From a phage, in sequence record PZ445551.1: DNA of 64,000 nt; one strand, given 5' to 3'. Each line of letters begins with the position of its first letter. The first letter of the stretch is position 1. This document shows positions 9,452 through 25,332 of this stretch, piece after piece. The notes beneath the pieces were generated by a model, which ran no database searches, had not been told where the DNA came from, and worked only from the letters and a program-made list of their open reading frames with translations. The translations under genes and the position numbers were made by a program.

Positions 9452-10579
9452 ATGAAATACACGATTTATGGTGATATTGTAAGTGTAAATAAAGATATGG
9501 GCGTGGAATCTAACTATCTTCCACCAGGATTCTATACTGTTAGTCGTGATCCCCTTGGCAATTATTTTTTAAGCCGTGGTAATCTGACAGGTGTACCGGA
9601 TGTTTTGTATGGTGAAACAGAAAAACGAGCAAATCACGTTATCCGTACATTCCATCGCCGGAGTGCACAAGGTAAAAACACAGGCTTGCTTCTGACAGGA
9701 ACTAAGGGCAGTGGTAAAACTATGTTAGCCAAACTCATTAGTCGTGACCTTGTAGAAGAAGGTATTCCAACTATTATGGTTACTCAAGCCTATAGTGATG
9801 CTAATTTCATTGAACTTATTAGCAAGATCACCGACAAAGCAGTGATTATTTTTGACGAGTTTGATAAAGTATATGAGAAGAAACAAGATCAAGAAGCACT
9901 TCTCACTTTGTTAGATGGTACTGGCAGTGGTAATAAACTGTTTATTCTGACTAAAAACAGTGGTTTTATCTCTGAATTCTTTTTAAATCGTCCTAGTCGT
10001 GTGTTTTATAATTTTAATTATGATAAAATCTCACTAGAAACTATGATTGACTATTTAGATAAAAACCTGGATAACAAAGCACACTTTGATAATTTCCAAA
10101 GACTTTGGGATGTAAGTTTAGAGTTGTCCTTTGATGTGATCCAAGGTATAGTAGAAGAACTTAATTTCTACCCTGATTTATCCTTTAAAGAATGTATCTC
10201 TATGATGGGCGTTTCTTTAGGTGGTGGTAATAAATGGGATATCAGCAGTGTTGTTATTAATGGGAAACTTCAGAAAGTTAGCTGGGTATCTAGTTGGCAT
10301 AACTTTACACCTGCAATCTTTTTAGGTGGCTCGTGCACACTAGACGTGTACTTGTCATCTCCAAGTGATGCAGACTCTAAAGAAGCCCTTGCTAATAGCT
10401 CTTACGTGGTTTTTGATGATGAAGGAGATGCTCGAATTCCATTGAATGCGACAAAAATGAAAGCAGATCTTATTACAGGCGGTAAAATCGTTGTGTTTAG
10501 TGATGATCCAGAAGATTCTTTCCGTATTGTTCTGGAACCAACTATCACCAATGGTGCAACTTTGGCAAGTGTGTTTTAA
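9452..10579 (+). CDS. AAA+ family ATPase
   Basis: Walker A GTKGSGKT, Walker B IIFDEFDK. Confidence 0.75.
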   Translation: MKYTIYGDIVSVNKDMGVESNYLPPGFYTVSRDPLGNYFLSRGNLTGVPDVLYGETEKRANHVIRTFHRRSAQGKNTGLLLTGTKGSGKTMLAKLISRDLVEEGIPTIMVTQAYSDANFIELISKITDKAVIIFDEFDKVYEKKQDQEALLTLLDGTGSGNKLFILTKNSGFISEFFLNRPSRVFYNFNYDKISLETMIDYLDKNLDNKAHFDNFQRLWDVSLELSFDVIQGIVEELNFYPDLSFKECISMMGVSLGGGNKWDISSVVINGKLQKVSWVSSWHNFTPAIFLGGSCTLDVYLSSPSDADSKEALANSSYVVFDDEGDARIPLNATKMKADLITGGKIVVFSDDPEDSFRIVLEPTITNGATLASVF

Positions 10580-10595
10580 GTAAGCCAGCAAATAA

Positions 10596-10618
10596 AAACC
10601 CGCTCCGGCGGGTTTTCT
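10596..10618 (+). terminator. rho-independent terminator
   Basis: Hairpin ACCCGCTCCGGCGGGT followed by TTTTCTTG. Confidence 0.6.
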
Positions 10619-10653
10619 TGTATTGATACCAGATTTAATAAGAGGAGTAATAG

Positions 10654-11826
10654 ATGACAGCACCAAAATCATGGGAACAATATAAAGAAGAATTAACACC
10701 CCTTGCTAAAAATCACAATATTCAAATCCTGGGTTATGTTGGTGAATGGAAAGGGAACAAGACTAAACTTAAGCTATCTTGCCCTAAACATGGAGAGTGG
10801 AACACCACGAACATTAATGATTTTAAGAAGGGACGTGGTTGTCCTATCTGTTCTGGTAAGAAGCCGTTAACATGGGAAACAGAATTGCCGATCTTGGAAG
10901 AGATAGCACAGAAGAGGGGGTATCAGGTGTTAGGGTACGTGGGAGAATGGAAAGGGAATAAAACAAAACTTGATTTGTTGTGTCATTGTGGTAATAAATG
11001 GGATACTACAAGTATTAACAATTTTAAACGTGGTAGCGGTTGTCCACAATGTAAGAGGGAGAGACAAACAATGTCCGACGATCAACATATTGCAGATTTC
11101 TTTTCTACAGGGGAATTTAAGGAAGGCACTATCTTCACCAATACAGGGAAACGTAACAAGCGTGATGCAGTATGGATGGTTGAGTGTCCTGTTTGCTCCC
11201 ATGATGAATATGTTCAAGCAGGTGTTTGTGATGGTAAATTTTACTCTGCAGGACATAACCTTAAACAAGGGTATATTCCGTGTCGTTGTGGGAACTATCA
11301 GTATACAGAAGACCAGATCACCTATAGGGTAAAAAAGGAAGTAGAAGGGAAAGGGTATGTCTGGGTAGATTGGATTACCAAACCCTCTTCTATAGGTAAG
11401 TTTAAATATCTTTGTCTTGTGCATGGTGAGCAGATAGGGAGTGCTCGTAATTTATTAAGCCTCGGTCAAGGTTGTCCACAGTGTGCTGGTCATAATCAAC
11501 AGCAATTATATATTAATATTGTTAAAGATAATGATATTATAGTTGCCCTTAAGTTTGGTATATCTAAAGATAGCGATAGACGATTAAACGGTCAAAATAG
11601 CCGTAATCTGTTTTTTATGGAGCGTATTTGTTTATATGATTTTAGCACAGTGAAACAATGTAGGGCTGCTGAAAGAGCTATAAAGAAAAAATTAAAAACT
11701 GGTATTTTAACGGCAAGAGAGTTGAAAGATGGTTATACAGAAACAGTAAGTGTTTCTGATTTGGAAAATCTTCAAAAAATTATTACACAATATGGTGGCA
11801 AATTAGTATACAGTAAGGAGATGTAA
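10654..11826 (+). CDS. zinc-ribbon repeat protein with C-terminal T5orf172/GIY-YIG-like domain (putative nuclease)
   Basis: Four repeats of a CxxC/H..GCPxC unit (e.g. GCPICSGKK, GCPQCKRER, GCPQCAGHN); C-terminus LYINIVKDNDIIVALKFGISKDSDRRL resembles T5orf172 as recalled. Confidence 0.55.
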   Translation: MTAPKSWEQYKEELTPLAKNHNIQILGYVGEWKGNKTKLKLSCPKHGEWNTTNINDFKKGRGCPICSGKKPLTWETELPILEEIAQKRGYQVLGYVGEWKGNKTKLDLLCHCGNKWDTTSINNFKRGSGCPQCKRERQTMSDDQHIADFFSTGEFKEGTIFTNTGKRNKRDAVWMVECPVCSHDEYVQAGVCDGKFYSAGHNLKQGYIPCRCGNYQYTEDQITYRVKKEVEGKGYVWVDWITKPSSIGKFKYLCLVHGEQIGSARNLLSLGQGCPQCAGHNQQQLYINIVKDNDIIVALKFGISKDSDRRLNGQNSRNLFFMERICLYDFSTVKQCRAAERAIKKKLKTGILTARELKDGYTETVSVSDLENLQKIITQYGGKLVYSKEM

Positions 11827-12378
11827 ATGCGGATTACTGATAAGTATGTGTTCTTCTTCTCGGCAAAAGATGAATTTAGCAACTGGTATCTATCATCTTT
11901 TATTGAACCTTTAGCTCCCAAGTATAATAATTCTATTACAAGTTCTGTTGAATTTACTTGTGTGGAACAATATATGATGTGGAGAAAAGCATGTTTGTTT
12001 TATGATTACAACATTGCATCTTCTATTTTAACCGGAGATCTAAGATATACAGGAGAAAAAGAACAAGCATATTATAAGCGACTAGGCAGATTAGTTAAAG
12101 ATTATGATGAAGATACCTGGACTTCTTTACGGGAGAAGATTGTCAAACGTGGTTTGTATCTTAAATACACACAAAATGAAGATCTCAAAAATAAACTTAT
12201 AGCCTACGCAGATAAGGAGTTCGTAGAGGCAAGCCCTTATGATTCTATTTATGGTATCAAAATGGGGATGTGGGATCGGGACGTGGAAAATAAGGATTGT
12301 TGGAAAGGACAAAATCTTTTAGGAAAATGGCATACAGACCTTGCTGTTTATCTAAAAGCACAATCTGATATTTCCTGA
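11827..12378 (+). CDS. NADAR (YbiA-like) domain protein
   Basis: DEFSNWYLSSF, FTCVEQYMMWRKA, and C-terminal D..WG....NLLGK match NADAR signature regions. Confidence 0.75.
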   Translation: MRITDKYVFFFSAKDEFSNWYLSSFIEPLAPKYNNSITSSVEFTCVEQYMMWRKACLFYDYNIASSILTGDLRYTGEKEQAYYKRLGRLVKDYDEDTWTSLREKIVKRGLYLKYTQNEDLKNKLIAYADKEFVEASPYDSIYGIKMGMWDRDVENKDCWKGQNLLGKWHTDLAVYLKAQSDIS

Positions 12379-12595
12379 TATTTTGAAAATTTTTATTTTT
12401 ATAAAAAGGGGTGTGGGTTTCATGTACGGAAATTCACCCTCTGCACAGTATATCCAGAGTAAGTAGTATTCTATACCCTGTTAATAAAGTATTTAATTTG
12501 TTTGTTGGACTATGGTATCTGATCTTTAAAAGGCATACTATCTCTTAACTACTACTTATAACAGAACAGTAAAATCATTTTTATAAAAAGTACAA

Positions 12596-12795
12596 AATTA
12601 TTTAAAGTTTTTACAGATTTTTGGGTACAAATTTTGAAAATGAAAAGTTCAAGTTTGGTCAAAATTATTTAAAGTTTTTGTACGTATTTCTATTCAGATT
12701 TTGAAAATGAAAACTTCAATTTTTTAAAAATTCCCCAGTTTATTTAAAGTTTTTTTGCCTTTTTCCGTAGAAAAATCAAAAATGAAAAGTTCAAT
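12596..12795. repeat. three tandem direct repeats of about 65 bp
   Basis: Each unit has TATTTAAAGTTTTT, a variable segment, then TTTTGAAAATGAAAAGTTCAA. Confidence 0.7.
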
Positions 12796-12816
12796 TTCGT
12801 GTTTTTATAGGTGTGT

Positions 12817-12930
12817 TAATGAGAATCATTTTCGTTTGTAAATGAGAATCATTATCATTTAACTATGTAAGTGATAATCATTCTCAGTAAGAGAATGAGA
12901 ATCCTTAGCAAATGAGAATTTTCTCATTTA
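12817..12930. promoter_or_regulatory. cluster of five Fur-box-like palindromic sites
   Basis: AATGAGAATCATTATCATT, GTGATAATCATTCTC, AATGAGAATTTTCTCATT and related; near-matches to GATAATGATAATCATTATC. Confidence 0.45.
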
Positions 12931-13044
12931 GAGAATAACGCGCAGGGGTGGTGTTTGTCTCGCGCTCCCGTGTCCCCTCGCCATACAATAAGAATAGCAT
13001 AACCAACAACAAAAGCAAGCGATTATTTTTATCTTTACATTTCT

Positions 13045-13458
13045 TTACAAATTTATTTTAGACGAGCTACCGGCGATCAACCTTCCAACCAGTGCCCCCT
13101 GGTATGTTAGCCCCGCCTTTACGCCGTGGGGGTGGCGCTTCCTCTTCTGTATGTAAAACAGTATAAGCCCGATCCCTGGGCTTGTCAAGATTATTTTTTG
13201 TTTTCTTGCCAGGATAGGACACCTAACCAAAAATACATGTCGCCCCGCGCCCCCTGGTGGGATCTTGCTTTCCCCGCCGCCACTGCAAGCCCATAGATAA
13301 CCATTTGCGAACGTATCAAAATGATCTATTTCTTCCACCTTATGATCGCCCAGGTTGAGAACGGTTTCAACCTTTAAGCCCGTTGCGCTTGCTACCTGGT
13401 GCACCGTGCCGCCTTGCCAGCCTAATGAGTGCATGAGGTGTGAAGTAGTATTTGTCAT
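13045..13458 (-). CDS. hypothetical protein on opposite strand in GC-rich island (137 aa)
   Basis: Only long ORF in the island; minus-strand TTGCTA-N17-TATTAT promoter-like element upstream; could be a chance ORF. Confidence 0.4.
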   Translation of the reverse strand: MTNTTSHLMHSLGWQGGTVHQVASATGLKVETVLNLGDHKVEEIDHFDTFANGYLWACSGGGESKIPPGGAGRHVFLVRCPILARKQKIILTSPGIGLILFYIQKRKRHPHGVKAGLTYQGALVGRLIAGSSSKINL

Positions 13459-13725
13459 GGTATCGCCCTTTCTTTGATGTGTGCCCTGGTTGGCGCGGTA
13501 GAAAGATAATAGCCCTTTCCTTTATAGATAGCAAGCAAAAAAGAAATGAAAAAAAGATTAAAAAAGGGGTTGACGTTCCTCACCTGGTAGCGTATTATTC
13601 ATCTTGTCGAGGGGGGCGAGGCACAACGACAATAAACAAAAGGAGGGCGCAATGTAGGACGGGCAAAGGTGAGGATCTCCACAATCCACCGTCACAATAA
13701 CATTACTTATAAAAGGTTGATAACG

Positions 13726-13821
13726 ATGATCAAGAAAGAAAACAGCTTGACGGTTGGAACGATTAACGCTATCATTTTCGCCGTTCCATTTTGGGTTGTA
13801 GTAGCGGTTATTATCTTTTAA
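13726..13821 (+). CDS. small hydrophobic peptide (about 31 aa)
   Basis: Not in ORF track; downstream of TTGACG-N17-TATTAT promoter-like element; weak. Confidence 0.25.
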   Translation: MIKKENSLTVGTINAIIFAVPFWVVVAVIIF

Positions 13822-13829
13822 AAATATTC

Positions 13830-13887
13830 TTGACAACGTTTTTTAATCTGATAAGATGTATCACATAGGGCGGCAATAGTGCCGCTC
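13830..13887 (+). promoter_or_regulatory. promoter + 5' stem-loop cassette
   Basis: TTGACA, 16 nt, TAAGAT; hairpin GGGCGGCAATAGTGCCGCTC begins a few nt after -10. Confidence 0.6.
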
Positions 13888-13909
13888 ATAACAGAAGAGA
13901 GAAATAATC

Positions 13910-14182
13910 ATGGCATCATATAGCGCATCAATGATCGTAACGGGCATCACTGGTAAACCTATGCGCGGTGGCGGATCTTTCGCTAACATCAATATTGATG
14001 GGCGTTTATCCCTGGACGCAGCGATCACAGTGGCACGGGAAACGTTTAAAAAAGAATGTAATTTCAATAAACAAGATTATCTCGGTTTCGCTATTGAAAA
14101 AACCGCGCGCTTTGTTGATTATAAAAGCCCGAAAATGGTTGATACTACACTAAAAGCGCAAGATGTAGCATTTTTGCTTTAA
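13910..14182 (+). CDS. hypothetical protein (90 aa)
   Basis: ORF after promoter/stem-loop cassette and SD. Confidence 0.55.
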   Translation: MASYSASMIVTGITGKPMRGGGSFANINIDGRLSLDAAITVARETFKKECNFNKQDYLGFAIEKTARFVDYKSPKMVDTTLKAQDVAFLL

Positions 14183-14185
14183 GGC

Positions 14186-14245
14186 TTGACACTGAAAAAT
14201 AATTTGGTAATATATACTACATAGGGCGGGGAAATGGTTTCCCGC
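14186..14245 (+). promoter_or_regulatory. promoter + 5' stem-loop cassette
   Basis: TTGACA, 16 nt, TAATAT; hairpin GGCGGGGAAATGGTTTCCCGCC. Confidence 0.6.
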
Positions 14246-14268
14246 CAAATCAAAGAAAGGGTAACACA

Positions 14269-14631
14269 ATGAGCAAGCAAATCAATACTATCATGTTAAA
14301 CCTGGTATCTTTCCGCGATGACGTGAAAAATCTTTCGCGTGATGCAGTGGATGCACGGATCGAAAGCTATCGCTCACAGATCGCAACATTACCGCTAAAA
14401 CGTGATCAACATGCCGCTAATATGATGCTTAATGCTATGCTTAAAAAGATGATTCAATGTGATCTTACCCTGGCTTATGAATATGCTGGCGATCTCTTTG
14501 TAACATACAATAAGCCCGTTCCAGGTATGAGCACAACCGAAGAATTGCATGCCTTAAATCTGCGACAAGATGCATGGGATAATATGCGCCGCGTTATGGT
14601 ATGGGTAGAAAGCGGCAAAATTTACGCATAA
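14269..14631 (+). CDS. hypothetical protein (120 aa)
   Basis: ORF after promoter/stem-loop cassette. Confidence 0.55.
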   Translation: MSKQINTIMLNLVSFRDDVKNLSRDAVDARIESYRSQIATLPLKRDQHAANMMLNAMLKKMIQCDLTLAYEYAGDLFVTYNKPVPGMSTTEELHALNLRQDAWDNMRRVMVWVESGKIYA

Positions 14632-15118: not shown

Positions 15119-15664
15119 ATGGGGCGTGAGTATGTGATCCAGTCCTGGGTAAAGCATGACGCTAATGATCCGCGCATAATACCAGATGACATGATCGATC
15201 ACATGGTAGGGTATAGCGGGGAGCAGATAGGAAATCGAGCGGCAAAGAGCAACGGCAACACAAAGGCGCGATCCGTTCGCCCTGGTTGGCTGGCAAATGG
15301 TAACGCTGACATTGCAAGCGCCGCAGATCCAAGCGATGACGCTAAAAATAATCCCTTATACAGCATTGATCCGGCTTTTAAGGTGTTAGAAGAGTATCCC
15401 GCTAAATTAGCCGCACTAGATAAGGCATACGAAGAAAAGCGCATGGCATGGACGGTATACAACACCGCTAAAATGGTGCTAGATGCAAAATTGATTAAAG
15501 CCCAGGAGAAGATCAATAAACTTGTTGCAGTAGCGCAAGAGGAAGACCAGGAGGAAGAGGAAGAAATCATGCCTACCCTGGAAGAGGAAGAGATCCAGCC
15601 ATACATGCCGACGGAAGAGGAAAAAAGACAAGCCCTAAAAAATTATGAAAATTGCATTGTGTAA
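15119..15664 (+). CDS. hypothetical protein with highly acidic C-terminus (181 aa)
   Basis: C-terminal QEEDQEEEEEIMPTLEEEEIQPYMPTEEE tract. Confidence 0.55.
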   Translation: MGREYVIQSWVKHDANDPRIIPDDMIDHMVGYSGEQIGNRAAKSNGNTKARSVRPGWLANGNADIASAADPSDDAKNNPLYSIDPAFKVLEEYPAKLAALDKAYEEKRMAWTVYNTAKMVLDAKLIKAQEKINKLVAVAQEEDQEEEEEIMPTLEEEEIQPYMPTEEEKRQALKNYENCIV

Positions 15665-23615: not shown

Positions 23616-23817
23616 CTAAATAAAGATGATAGCTTTTACCTATCAAAAACGTTCACCGAAAAAAGTGAATAGATCGCGGTATCGAGCTAATCAAGGAGCA
23701 GATGAACAACCATACCATGAAGATCATAAGGCGCTTACAACGTGTTTTAGACCGCTTATTTTTAATTTCTCAATGTAACTATCTGGCAAAAACAGCCTTT
23801 TTCTTGTCTTTCCTCTT

Positions 23818-23895
23818 AAATGATAATCATTCTTATTTATAGCTGATTATTTATGCAATAAACTGAATAATGCAATAATGATAATCATTCTTAAC
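23818..23895. promoter_or_regulatory. two Fur-box-like sites
   Basis: AAATGATAATCATTCTTA and AATAATGATAATCATTCTTAAC. Confidence 0.45.
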
Positions 23896-24260
23896 TTATG
23901 ACCATCTAACCTATAAAATAATAAGTTATCTAACTAAATTAAAACTAATTATCTCACCTTTATTTATAACTTACTGTTACTATCTCATTGATAACCTTAT
24001 ATTAAACAACAATAACCAATATAAATCATTACTAAGCTAAATATAATCTATCTAACCTTTAAAACTATAACTATAATCTATCGAATTGTTGCACAAAGTA
24101 ACTATTAAATTGTTAGTAACATTACTAAATAATTAATATCCTATCTATTTATGATCTAATCTTTATCTTCCTATCTATTACCTAAATAATCATTTCATAC
24201 AGTAATCATTTCATACAATAATTATAACAAGAAATATAATTCGCAAGCGTATCATTAGCA

Positions 24261-24430
24261 GCCTATGCCGGACACATAGGCGGCTAATAATAACGCAACT
24301 ACACACCCCACATAATAACCATCACCGATAGTTATTATTTGTGCTTATGTAGCTTGCAACAATTGCAAGCGCAACAATATACATGGTATATTGTATCCCT
24401 TACATTGTTGCGGTGCGTTATTATTAGCTA
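24261..24430. repeat. nested palindromes flanked by perfect 15-bp inverted repeat
   Basis: GCTAATAATAACGCA ... TGCGTTATTATTAGC enclosing GCTTGCAACAATTGCAAGC and CAATATACATGGTATATTG; also GCCTATG..CATAGGC. Confidence 0.6.
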
Positions 24431-24757
24431 ATGTTTAGAACATTGGCTATAATATAAGCTAAGTAATAAGCTATGCAATAATAAACATGGTGAATAATGA
24501 CATTGATGATCATAATGCGCCACCTTCCAGGGGGCGCTATGTGAACACAAAGAAATCTTTCTTGTCAAGAAAAAATATTGCCATTATTGCGCAAAATTAT
24601 TTATATCTGAATAGATGATTTTTCATACTATTGCCCCATATAACATACCTCATTTGTTGAGCATAGTTATAGCCTATTTGTTGAGCCTACTTTCTTAAAA
24701 GCGCAATAAATCAGAATTATCTTGATTTTTAGTCTGTTTTATAGTATAGAAAGTATG

Positions 24758-24778
24758 CAAATGATAATCATTATCAGC
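24758..24778. promoter_or_regulatory. Fur-box-like site (best match)
   Basis: CAAATGATAATCATTATCAGC, about 17 of 19 matches to GATAATGATAATCATTATC. Confidence 0.45.
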
Positions 24779-24940
24779 TATCTTCCACGGGTAGCACTAT
24801 TTCACGCCAGATCATTTCATTTGGCAAGGTGTATATAGATGTTTAGACTTGCCAAGCCATTGATTTACTTAGAATTTATCTGTTTTGTTGTGAGTAGAGC
24901 CTTTCTTGCTCAGAAAATAATCAAAAGTCTTATAAGTCAT

Positions 24941-24977
24941 TGAATGATAATGCAAATGATAATTATTCTCATTGATA
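24941..24977. promoter_or_regulatory. Fur-box-like palindromic site
   Basis: TGAATGATAATGCAAATGATAATTATTCTCATTGATA. Confidence 0.4.
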
Positions 24978-25090
24978 TTTGAGGGGGACGGTCGGCAGAA
25001 ATCGGGGGGCGCTGAAAATCGCGTTAAGCACCTCTCGCAAGCGAGCAGTATTTTGCGGCAAGTTATTGATATTATTGGCTTTACGCTTAT

Positions 25091-25195
25091 GAAAAGGGGG
25101 TGTGTCGAAATAAATCGGGTATACCGGAAAATTTTTGTGGCATAGATATTTATTTGTCTATATTATGTACAAAAGGGTGTGTTAAAAATATTAGG
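25091..25195 (+). promoter_or_regulatory. two tandem copies of AAAAGGG(G)TGTGT-AAATA-GGTATA motif (candidate phage-specific promoter)
   Basis: GAAAAGGGGGTGTGTCGAAATAAATCGGGTATACC and CAAAAGGGTGTGTTAAAAATATTAGGTATATA, about 80 bp apart, upstream of cluster starting 25333. Confidence 0.35.
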
Positions 25196-25332
25196 TATAT
25201 ATAGAATAATTGATAGGGAAATCCTATACTAATTCCTCCATTAATGATGTTTCTATGTTACTGTTCTTGTAACAGATGAAAAGACGCTGTATGATGTGTG
25301 GCATGAAACGTAAATTTATAAAGGAGTCTGAT

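Follow-up and report, generated by a model that had tools for sequence, protein, structure and literature searches.

In the 64,000-nt stretch of phage DNA analysed here (sequence record PZ445551.1, hereafter the window), we examined a GC-rich island at positions 13045–13700 and the minus-strand open reading frame (ORF) that it contains. The island is very probably a conserved leftward-transcribed unit of phi92/rV5-type phages, set among rightward genes. The overall explanation that we favour, with a probability of about 70%, is that this unit, whose early expression we infer as part of the explanation, carries a gene of the Phi92_gp224 family and a candidate non-coding RNA of about 100 nt, which we call RNA1. 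The whole reading is drawn from comparative sequence evidence. The features of the gene and of RNA1 are as follows, with the basis of each in brackets.

13506–13534, minus strand: promoter of the gp224-family gene, TTGCTA-N17-TATTAT, followed by a Shine–Dalgarno-like AAGGG and an ATG at 13458 (promoter scan; 9/12 consensus positions)
13191–13458, minus strand: gp224-family gene (PHROG 19316; 88 aa in relatives), interrupted here by a +1 frameshift (DNA alignment, tblastn, homologues, AlphaFold2)
13250–13254: C5 homopolymer with one extra C (C4 in six related Justusliebigvirus loci)
13160–13188, minus strand: promoter P1, TTGACA-N17-TATACT, 11/12 consensus positions (promoter scan; comparison of 27 variants)
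13052–13152, minus strand: RNA1, candidate conserved non-coding RNA, ~100 nt (conservation, covariance model, covariation, hairpin predictions)
13137–13134 with 13125–13122, minus strand: stem S1 of RNA1, CGCC/GGCG (in all RNA1 types)
13131–13128 with 13114–13111, minus strand: proposed pseudoknot stem S2 of RNA1, CCCC/GGGG (pairing variants across types)
13106–13099 with 13092–13086, minus strand: variable bulged hairpin H3 of RNA1 (predicted in all types)
13077–13063, minus strand: conserved 3' motif of RNA1, AUCGCCGGUAGCUCG (RNA: AUCGCCGGUAGYUCG) (alignment)

Over positions 12400–14300, the window matches Escherichia phage VivaForever (PP925843.1, reverse strand), a phi92-like Justusliebigvirus, at 100% identity, and phi92, Paula, inny, alia and further genomes of Justusliebigvirus at 96–98%. 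The sequence-only reading of this DNA had pointed to 13045–13700 as a GC-rich island, and rightly: its GC content is 0.483 compared with a window mean of 0.372 (standard deviation 0.027 among 656-nt segments), which makes it the most GC-rich 656-nt stretch of the 64 kb, with a value reached by 0.08% of such segments. The island starts further left than in that reading, at ~12940, next to a left flank (12380–12939) with a GC content of 0.257. We ascribe the high GC content to a sequence that has been kept constant within an AT-rich genome, not to recent import. The 137-aa minus-strand ORF at 13045–13458 is present as described. It is not the only long ORF on the opposite strand of this block, as had been stated, since minus-strand ORFs of at least 100 aa are also found at 10355–10699, 10930–11424 and 15199–15606, all three wholly within longer plus-strand ORFs.

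The annotation of 12400–14300 differs between records, with two or three genes in those of the phi92-like relatives and nine short coding sequences (CDS) for 'hypothetical proteins' in VivaForever. Most of the latter (13558–13836 and 13455–13583 on the minus strand, and others) overlap promoters, RNA1, the downstream RNA2 element or repeats and are absent from the curated relatives. It is likely that most of these nine CDS are over-calls.

A distant blastn search with 12940–13700 matched 234 phage records. The gene and its flanks occupy the same place in the same orientation in Justusliebigvirus and Phapecoctavirus, and members of the protein family are also present in unclassified Stephanstirmvirinae and in phages of the Certrevirus type (phiTE, SSBI34). 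Instead of the gp224 gene, Seunavirus and Mydovirus have another small ORF on the minus strand (PHROG 4653) at this position, CR3 has none, and FKP3 and KP13-26 harbour both small genes, gp224-family and PHROG 4653, in tandem. The same non-coding module lies at the same position in Justusliebigvirus, Phapecoctavirus, Seunavirus, Certrevirus, Mydovirus, Henunavirus and unclassified relatives, and the unit is at the same place in the Stephanstirmvirinae and the Vequintavirinae. All Justusliebigvirus matches carry the island at the same site, so that its presence is neither patchy nor out of synteny.

The gp224-family gene and its frameshift

The phages phi92, inny and Paula have an 88-aa protein annotated at this place (Phi92_gp224). 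A four-way DNA alignment of the window with these genomes showed 98% identity and one extra C in the window, in the homopolymer at 13250–13254. In six further Justusliebigvirus loci the run is C4 and the frame is that of 88 aa, and among the seven compared the 137-aa frame occurs only in the window. The 137-aa product, presented as a protein by the sequence-only reading, results from a frameshift: the extra C fuses two frames into the ORF at 13045–13458, the last 68 codons of which are out-of-frame read-through. Codons 1–69 are read in frame from 13458 and are 100% identical to those of phi92 gp224, with the position and strand also shared, and tblastn located the conserved C-terminus ARGDMYFWLGVLSWQENKK in another frame, from 13274 to 13194, ahead of a stop codon at 13191–13193. 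The suspicion that the ORF might be a chance product of GC-richness therefore fails for the first 69 codons, given their homology to a conserved protein, and holds for the last 68. The extra C is either a true mutation, which would make this copy a frameshifted member or a pseudogene, or a homopolymer sequencing error.

Searches with the protein agree with this picture. The N-terminal 69 residues match the gp224 family (E 3e-44), the match to PHROG 19316 has an E value of 3e-59, and the N-terminus also matches phiTE_079 (PHROG 33408). The family is characterized by ~88 residues with an N-terminal LGWQGGTVHQVA..TGL motif and a C-terminal FWLGV motif in one frame; a full-length match in a single frame failed for the window's copy, in which FWLGV is out of frame. 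A search of 5.8 billion proteins yielded 18 relatives with 45–98% identity, nearly all of 86–93 aa, and among these 18 no Pfam domain and no informative name was found. In the alignment of homologues the invariant residues are L8, M9, L12, W14, G17, T18, V22, T26, G27 and L28, with a C-terminal FW.GV (W77/G79). AlphaFold2 modelled the protein as a five-helix bundle (predicted local distance difference test score 94; predicted template modelling score 0.87). Helix-turn-helix-like matches in PDB sequence and Pfam searches were all below threshold and do not place the protein in that class. Judged from these alignments, the gp224 family is a genuine protein family; both protein homologues and conservation in relatives, the lack of which the sequence-only reading would have counted against itself, were thus found.

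The promoter-like element TTGCTA-N17-TATTAT that had been pointed out ahead of the ORF is indeed there, from 13534 to 13506 on the minus strand. The homologues examined each have a sigma-70-like promoter at the equivalent place and a Shine–Dalgarno sequence, the sequences themselves differing. As a side observation, phiTE_079 (locus L006, 1662–2093) is annotated as a 143-aa protein, whereas the family alignment and the upstream promoter and Shine–Dalgarno sequence place its start at MKTNTELLM; the annotated start is probably 50 codons too early.

RNA1, a candidate non-coding RNA

The most widely conserved piece of the region lies not in the gene but at 13032–13157. In the distant blastn search, this piece is 72–85% identical in phages of Klebsiella, Cronobacter, Pectobacterium, Salmonella, Enterobacter and Erwinia that are otherwise hardly alignable with the window and that usually have no annotation there. 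We aligned the module in the minus-strand sense, with 20 and then 27 distinct variants. Promoter P1 keeps its hexamers and its 17-nt spacing across the 27 variants, with TTGACA, TTGCAA or TTGACG followed by TATACT, TATAGT, TATATT or CATAAT, while the sequence of the spacer varies. The spacer always holds a GC hairpin (13183 to 13165 in the window), which is a terminator-like element after the gp224 gene.

RNA1 is present in every related phage locus examined. A covariance model built from S1 and the hairpin, with the pseudoknot left out, detected exactly one copy per locus at 45–128 bits, and the single copy in the window (13052–13157) scored 114.9 bits. The alternative of a structured RNA, raised by the sequence-only reading in place of a protein, thus proved partly right, as a candidate for a conserved small-RNA gene lies under the 3' third of the ORF. 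Among close relatives, the loop of the central hairpin differs in length by 1 to 6 nt, and the frame-breaking indels (of 1, 2, 4 and 5 nt) show that RNA1 is non-coding. Coding on the plus strand across the module was considered and rejected: an ORF covers RNA1 in PVP-SE1 and KpS8, but it is closed in the window and broken by indels elsewhere. We also rejected a small ORF within RNA1, as the GUG and UUG mini-frames differ between types.

Several types of RNA1 can be distinguished. Type A is the most frequent; NDO71, Ro1, FKP3, P7_Pc, cardinal and A7_1 have type B, and there are further variants in phages of Erwinia, in Citrobacter phage Tr1 and in Salmonella phage SSBI34. In these variants the loop of S1 can pair with a segment 5–7 nt downstream to form the proposed S2, as CCCC/GGGG in type A, CCAA/UUGG in type B and the Erwinia phages, CCAG/CUGG in Citrobacter phage Tr1 and with CUCC, which gives a G-U pair, in 4MG. 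The first loop of 1–2 nt and the A-rich third loop have the geometry of an H-type pseudoknot. The sequence of the hairpin segment is almost wholly different between types, and the same bulged shape was predicted in nine of nine representatives. This hairpin is more stable on the minus than on the opposite strand in eight of the nine types, with hairpin-only z values of −0.3 to −2.8 depending on the type.

The covariation score of the named structure including the pseudoknot was 0.149, compared with 0.057 ± 0.009 for shuffled alignments (0/500) and at most 0.052 for slid controls. Six pairs show two-sided changes; pair 30–44 is CG in 25 sequences and AU in 8, and pair 53–96 is AU in 19 and GC in 14. 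RNA1 with its two covarying pairs is consistent with an H-type pseudoknot and a variable hairpin, and it is probably a real RNA gene. From the comparison of variants, we infer expression of RNA1, folding into the structure given here and, with much less assurance, an action in trans.

A number of observations weigh against this interpretation of the unit. Taken as a whole and folded as a single sequence, RNA1 is no more stable than its shuffles (z = −0.11). With RNAalifold, nothing emerges beyond the invariant S1 and a long-range helix of 3 bp (46–48 with 109–111), and the latter competes with S2 in type A, the commonest type. S2 itself has just 4 bp and, within single sequences, is not significant relative to composition-matched shuffles (P 0.05–0.35). 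Each of the two covarying pairs may stem from no more than one or two events in evolution, and the alignment was one fitted to S1 and H3; in the hairpin, both MAFFT and the covariance model place type B out of register. RNA1 lacks an obvious intrinsic terminator, and RNAalifold gives no consensus fold for the RNA2 element downstream of it. The gp224 model has no significant structural neighbour in the PDB. Lastly, the literature that we searched for this phage group holds nothing on small RNAs, transcriptomes or expression.

Known RNA families and a host origin of RNA1 found no support in the searches. Rfam 15 gave no match at the gathering threshold in the 64 kb, and matches with E ≤ 5 on 12300–14000 were at chance level only; ARAGORN detected no tRNA or tmRNA in the window. 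RNA1 had no blastn match in 5,426 Escherichia coli genomes, and when 185,579 species genomes of bacteria and archaea were scanned with a structured pattern, one chance match came up, at 16 bits. On these results, an origin of RNA1 from the host was rejected. In metagenomes, all matches to the structured pattern were in phage contigs of ~145 kb, apart from two chance matches, and a shorter 17-nt pattern gave chance matches in coding regions only. Two other candidate roles were dropped. A lone 'terminator' annotation beside the phiTE homologue had suggested the phiTE pseudo-ToxI, a type III antitoxin mimic; the homologue of our element in phiTE lies at 39.7 kb, the escape locus is 67 kb away, and RNA1 is not a tandem repeat and so lacks the tandem 36-nt repeats of a ToxI-like RNA. 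The GGA motifs of RNA1 had suggested a CsrA sponge, which was rejected by eye, as they are not kept in the Erwinia, Tr1 and type-B variants.

In several relatives, RNA1 is associated with a homing-type endonuclease gene. In Raoultella phage Ro1 (locus L022, 6420–7013), a type-A copy of RNA1 ends prematurely inside the 3' motif (...GGAUCGC). Next comes a gene for a 197-aa HNH endonuclease (PHROG 953, E 8e-79), downstream of which lie a complete P1, a type-B RNA1 and the rest of the module. This diverged type-B allele keeps the proposed pairings of RNA1. Pectobacterium phage P7_Pc (locus L033, 640–720) is arranged likewise, except that just the final codons of the endonuclease gene are left, and a Klebsiella phage record (H76) has an HNH endonuclease annotated at the same spot. 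The layout in Ro1 has the pattern expected of intronless homing into a conserved, selected target, with a diverged allele apparently carried along, and is a separate sign of selection on the locus.

Neighbouring elements and genes

Downstream of RNA1 in the direction of its proposed transcription, the module continues with a second promoter and further elements, and a divergent promoter lies on its other side.

13032–13051, minus strand: two direct TGTAAAGA repeats one helical turn apart, just upstream of P2 (alignment; in nearly all relatives, A7_1 being without them)
12991–13018, minus strand: promoter P2, TTGCTT-N16-TATTCT (read from the sequence; TTGCAA-N17-TATATT in most relatives)
12940–12984, minus strand: 'RNA2', a GC-rich (0.63) imperfect hairpin or terminator-like element with a conserved CA-rich apex GAGACAAACACC and a UUAUUCU tail (alignment)
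12820–12930, no strand assigned: Fur-box-like palindromes, TGAGAATCATTATCA at 12843 and TGATAATCATTCTCA at 12872, with weaker ones at 12820 and ~12912 (consensus scan)
13570–13598, plus strand: divergent promoter TTGACG-N17-TATTAT (promoter scan; invariant in the four-way alignment with phi92, inny and Paula)

The transcript of RNA1 may run on to RNA2. P7_Pc appears recombinant inside RNA2, and in three loci of Klebsiella phages (L009, L017 and L020) P2/RNA2-like copies recur at a distance of ~7 kb from the main module.

The enterobacterial Fur box is GATAATGATAATCATTATC, with the 7-1-7 core TGATAATnATTATCA. Allowing at most two mismatches to this core, we found seven sites in the window where 0.52 were expected, a 13-fold excess over shuffles, and the site at 24762 is a perfect match. 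The sites cluster in the two large non-coding regions, at 12820–12930 and 23821–24971. At least one such site lies within 90 nt of the RNA2 element in 35 of the 35 related loci with enough sequence, with one to four per locus. Conserved sites of the Fur type are unusual in a virulent phage. Fur could be their ligand, and equally a phage protein could. By eye, no convincing plus-strand promoter overlapped by Fur-like sites was found at the window sites, and a literature search returned nothing relevant on Fur sites in this phage group.

Beyond these palindromes, three AT-rich direct repeats of ~70 nt cover 12577–12797, with a spacing of 67–75 nt, 71–72% identity and the core ATTATTTAAAGTTTTT...TTTTGAAAATGAAAAGTTCAA; inny and alia annotate only a 'repeat_region' there. 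A second gene-free AT-rich region of 1.5 kb (23780–25270, GC content 0.31) has many short repeats and four Fur-like sites, the last of which is followed by a GC-rich segment at 24975–25060. This region may be a sister regulatory region or a candidate origin.

The neighbours of the unit encode an AAA ATPase, a CapR/T5orf172 endonuclease and one protein of unknown function. The endonuclease gene at 10654–11826 (plus strand) codes for a 390-aa protein with three CapR-homology/zinc-finger repeats and a T5orf172 domain (PHROG 681, 'endonuclease'), which is probably a further homing-type nuclease of the free-standing kind, encoded immediately upstream of the non-coding region. On the other side, in 13599–13821 of the plus strand, downstream of the divergent promoter, a consensus Shine–Dalgarno sequence precedes an ATG-TAG start-stop at 13651–13656, whose counterpart in phi92 is a 6-codon ORF (ATG CAG ... 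TGA). A 31-aa hydrophobic ORF, MIKKENSLTVGTINAIIFAVPFWVVVAVIIF, follows at 13726–13821 on the plus strand and has no PHROG match.

Proposed function, alternatives and known systems

If the unit works as we propose, its host-type promoter would drive a small all-alpha protein of the Phi92_gp224 family, the extra C letting the frame run on over the downstream elements in the window. The GC hairpin directly after the true gp224 stop would lie in the spacer of P1, as a terminator embedded in a promoter. P1 would transcribe RNA1, with a purine-rich 5' end, an H-type pseudoknot, the variable bulged hairpin and the conserved 3' motif; in the pseudoknot, S1 would form from CGCC and GGCG, and the CCCC of its loop would pair with the downstream GGGG across an A-rich loop. 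P2 and the GC-rich CA-loop element would follow, the latter probably ending both transcripts, and beyond RNA2 would come the Fur-box-like palindromes and the AT-rich repeat region. On the plus strand, the promoter at 13570–13598 would restart rightward transcription.

What RNA1 might do can be suggested only tentatively: it is possible that it is a stable early RNA that acts in trans by binding a protein partner, as a decoy or a regulator. We favour such a role because the most constrained parts of RNA1 are the pseudoknot and single-stranded motifs, not a long antisense stretch, and because there is no antisense target opposite RNA1 and no gene after it to regulate in cis. A fuller version is rather unlikely to hold in all its parts. 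It would make RNA1 an undescribed family of pseudoknotted small RNAs of rV5/phi92/PVP-SE1 phages, expressed early and acting on a host or phage protein, for instance as a decoy against a defence or regulatory factor, within an iron-sensitive hub formed with P2/RNA2 and the Fur boxes. Were it true, this would be the first strictly lytic phage that ties part of its early programme to the Fur regulon of its host.

Two other readings take the non-coding part of the unit as a DNA or cis-acting element. The region might be a transcription-primed replication origin, in which P1 and P2 would fire a G-rich structured transcript into the AT-rich repeats of 12380–12939 (GC content 0.26) and the resulting R-loop would prime DNA synthesis. 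That is improbable, but several features would fit. Two tandem sigma-70 promoters face an AT-rich region with three direct repeats of ~70 nt, the transcript strand is G-rich (GC skew of −0.13 to −0.20 on the plus strand over 12900–13350), and the region forms a large gap between genes. No origin has been defined for rV5-type phages, the rV5 paper noting only a 'non-coding' box and an undefined origin (PMC3606486). The palindromes, on this reading, would bind host or phage factors. Nevertheless, the cumulative GC skew has no inflection here, no replication genes are adjacent, and the similar AT-rich non-coding region at 23780–25270 is an equally good candidate. The covariation in RNA1 also argues that the folded RNA matters, although ColE1 RNA II is folded too.

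It is quite unlikely that the block is a transcriptional insulator or another cis-regulatory block, in which GC hairpins and convergent leftward promoters would stop or modulate rightward transcription, possibly in an iron-responsive manner through Fur, and in which the conservation would reflect a DNA or terminator function. The unit is convergent with the upstream plus-strand genes and is followed by a new plus-strand promoter at 13570, Fur-box-like sites flank the block in all relatives, and terminator-like sites of the plus strand are found inside RNA1 (13122–13137, followed by CUUCCUCUUC) and at 13244–13261. The tails of these sites, however, are mixtures of C and U, not U-tracts, and no convincing plus-strand promoter overlapped by Fur sites was found. 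Moreover, an insulator has no need for a conserved, well-spaced minus-strand promoter right upstream of 100 conserved nucleotides, and the covarying and G-U pairs fit a minus-strand RNA.

The recently acquired moron encoding a 137-aa protein that the sequence-only reading had proposed is highly improbable: the base composition is atypical (GC content 0.483 versus 0.372), and the gene has its own promoter (13534 to 13506), a hairpin past its true stop (13183 to 13165) and the opposite orientation, all as such a reading would have it, but its gene family and flanking module are syntenic over two phage subfamilies instead of being patchily present, the 137-aa frame is unique to the window among seven Justusliebigvirus loci and loses the conserved FWLGV C-terminus, and neither E. 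coli genomes nor the 185,579 species genomes gave a match.

The conserved leftward unit has some bearing on other work. The phages rV5, phi92, PVP-SE1, CR3, phiTE and the Klebsiella Mydoviruses are widely used in studies of therapy and biocontrol, yet the large non-coding gaps of their genomes either bear no annotation or are populated with spurious ORFs. A real RNA1 would mean that a conserved early RNA gene, the target of a homing endonuclease, is absent from all annotations and from Rfam. The sites of the Fur type next to the module would offer a direct way to ask whether virulent phages read the iron status of their host. A practical outcome is that a frameshifted gene and several false CDS calls have been flagged in a deposited genome.

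With regard to known systems, RNA1 resembles the phage small RNAs made from host-type promoters (lambda OOP, P1/P7 c4, P4 CI RNA, T4 species C/D) in being a short, conserved transcript, as predicted, with its own sigma-70-type promoter. Unlike them, it is a candidate from sequence, without an Rfam match, C4 included, without an antisense target opposite and without a tRNA-like fold. Its proposed core is akin to the compact H-type pseudoknots of the T4 gene 32 operator, preQ1-I and SAM-II, with an S1 of 4–5 bp, an L1 of 1–2 nt, an S2 of 4 bp and an A-rich L3 of 5–7 nt; it differs from them in having no downstream gene to regulate and no sequence similarity, and its S2 is backed by only one covarying pair and one lineage-specific variant. 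The likeness to transcription-activated origins (T4 oriF/oriG, the T7 primary origin, ColE1 RNA II), namely promoters directed into an AT-rich region of the unwinding type and a structured G-rich transcript, is by resemblance only; there is no change of skew here.

The window sites differ from the 15-bp core of the Fur box by zero to two bases; unlike enterobacterial Fur boxes, they lie in a virulent phage and have no visible promoter overlap. The arrangement in the relatives recalls free-standing HNH intronless homing of the T4 seg/mob type, with an HNH gene in or near a conserved target and a diverged, presumably resistant allele alongside; here it is seen in Ro1 and P7_Pc, not in the window. 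Lastly, although the window's copy of the gene is frameshifted and lacks the conserved C-terminal helix, it agrees with Phi92_gp224/PHROG 19316 in its first 69 codons, its position and its strand.

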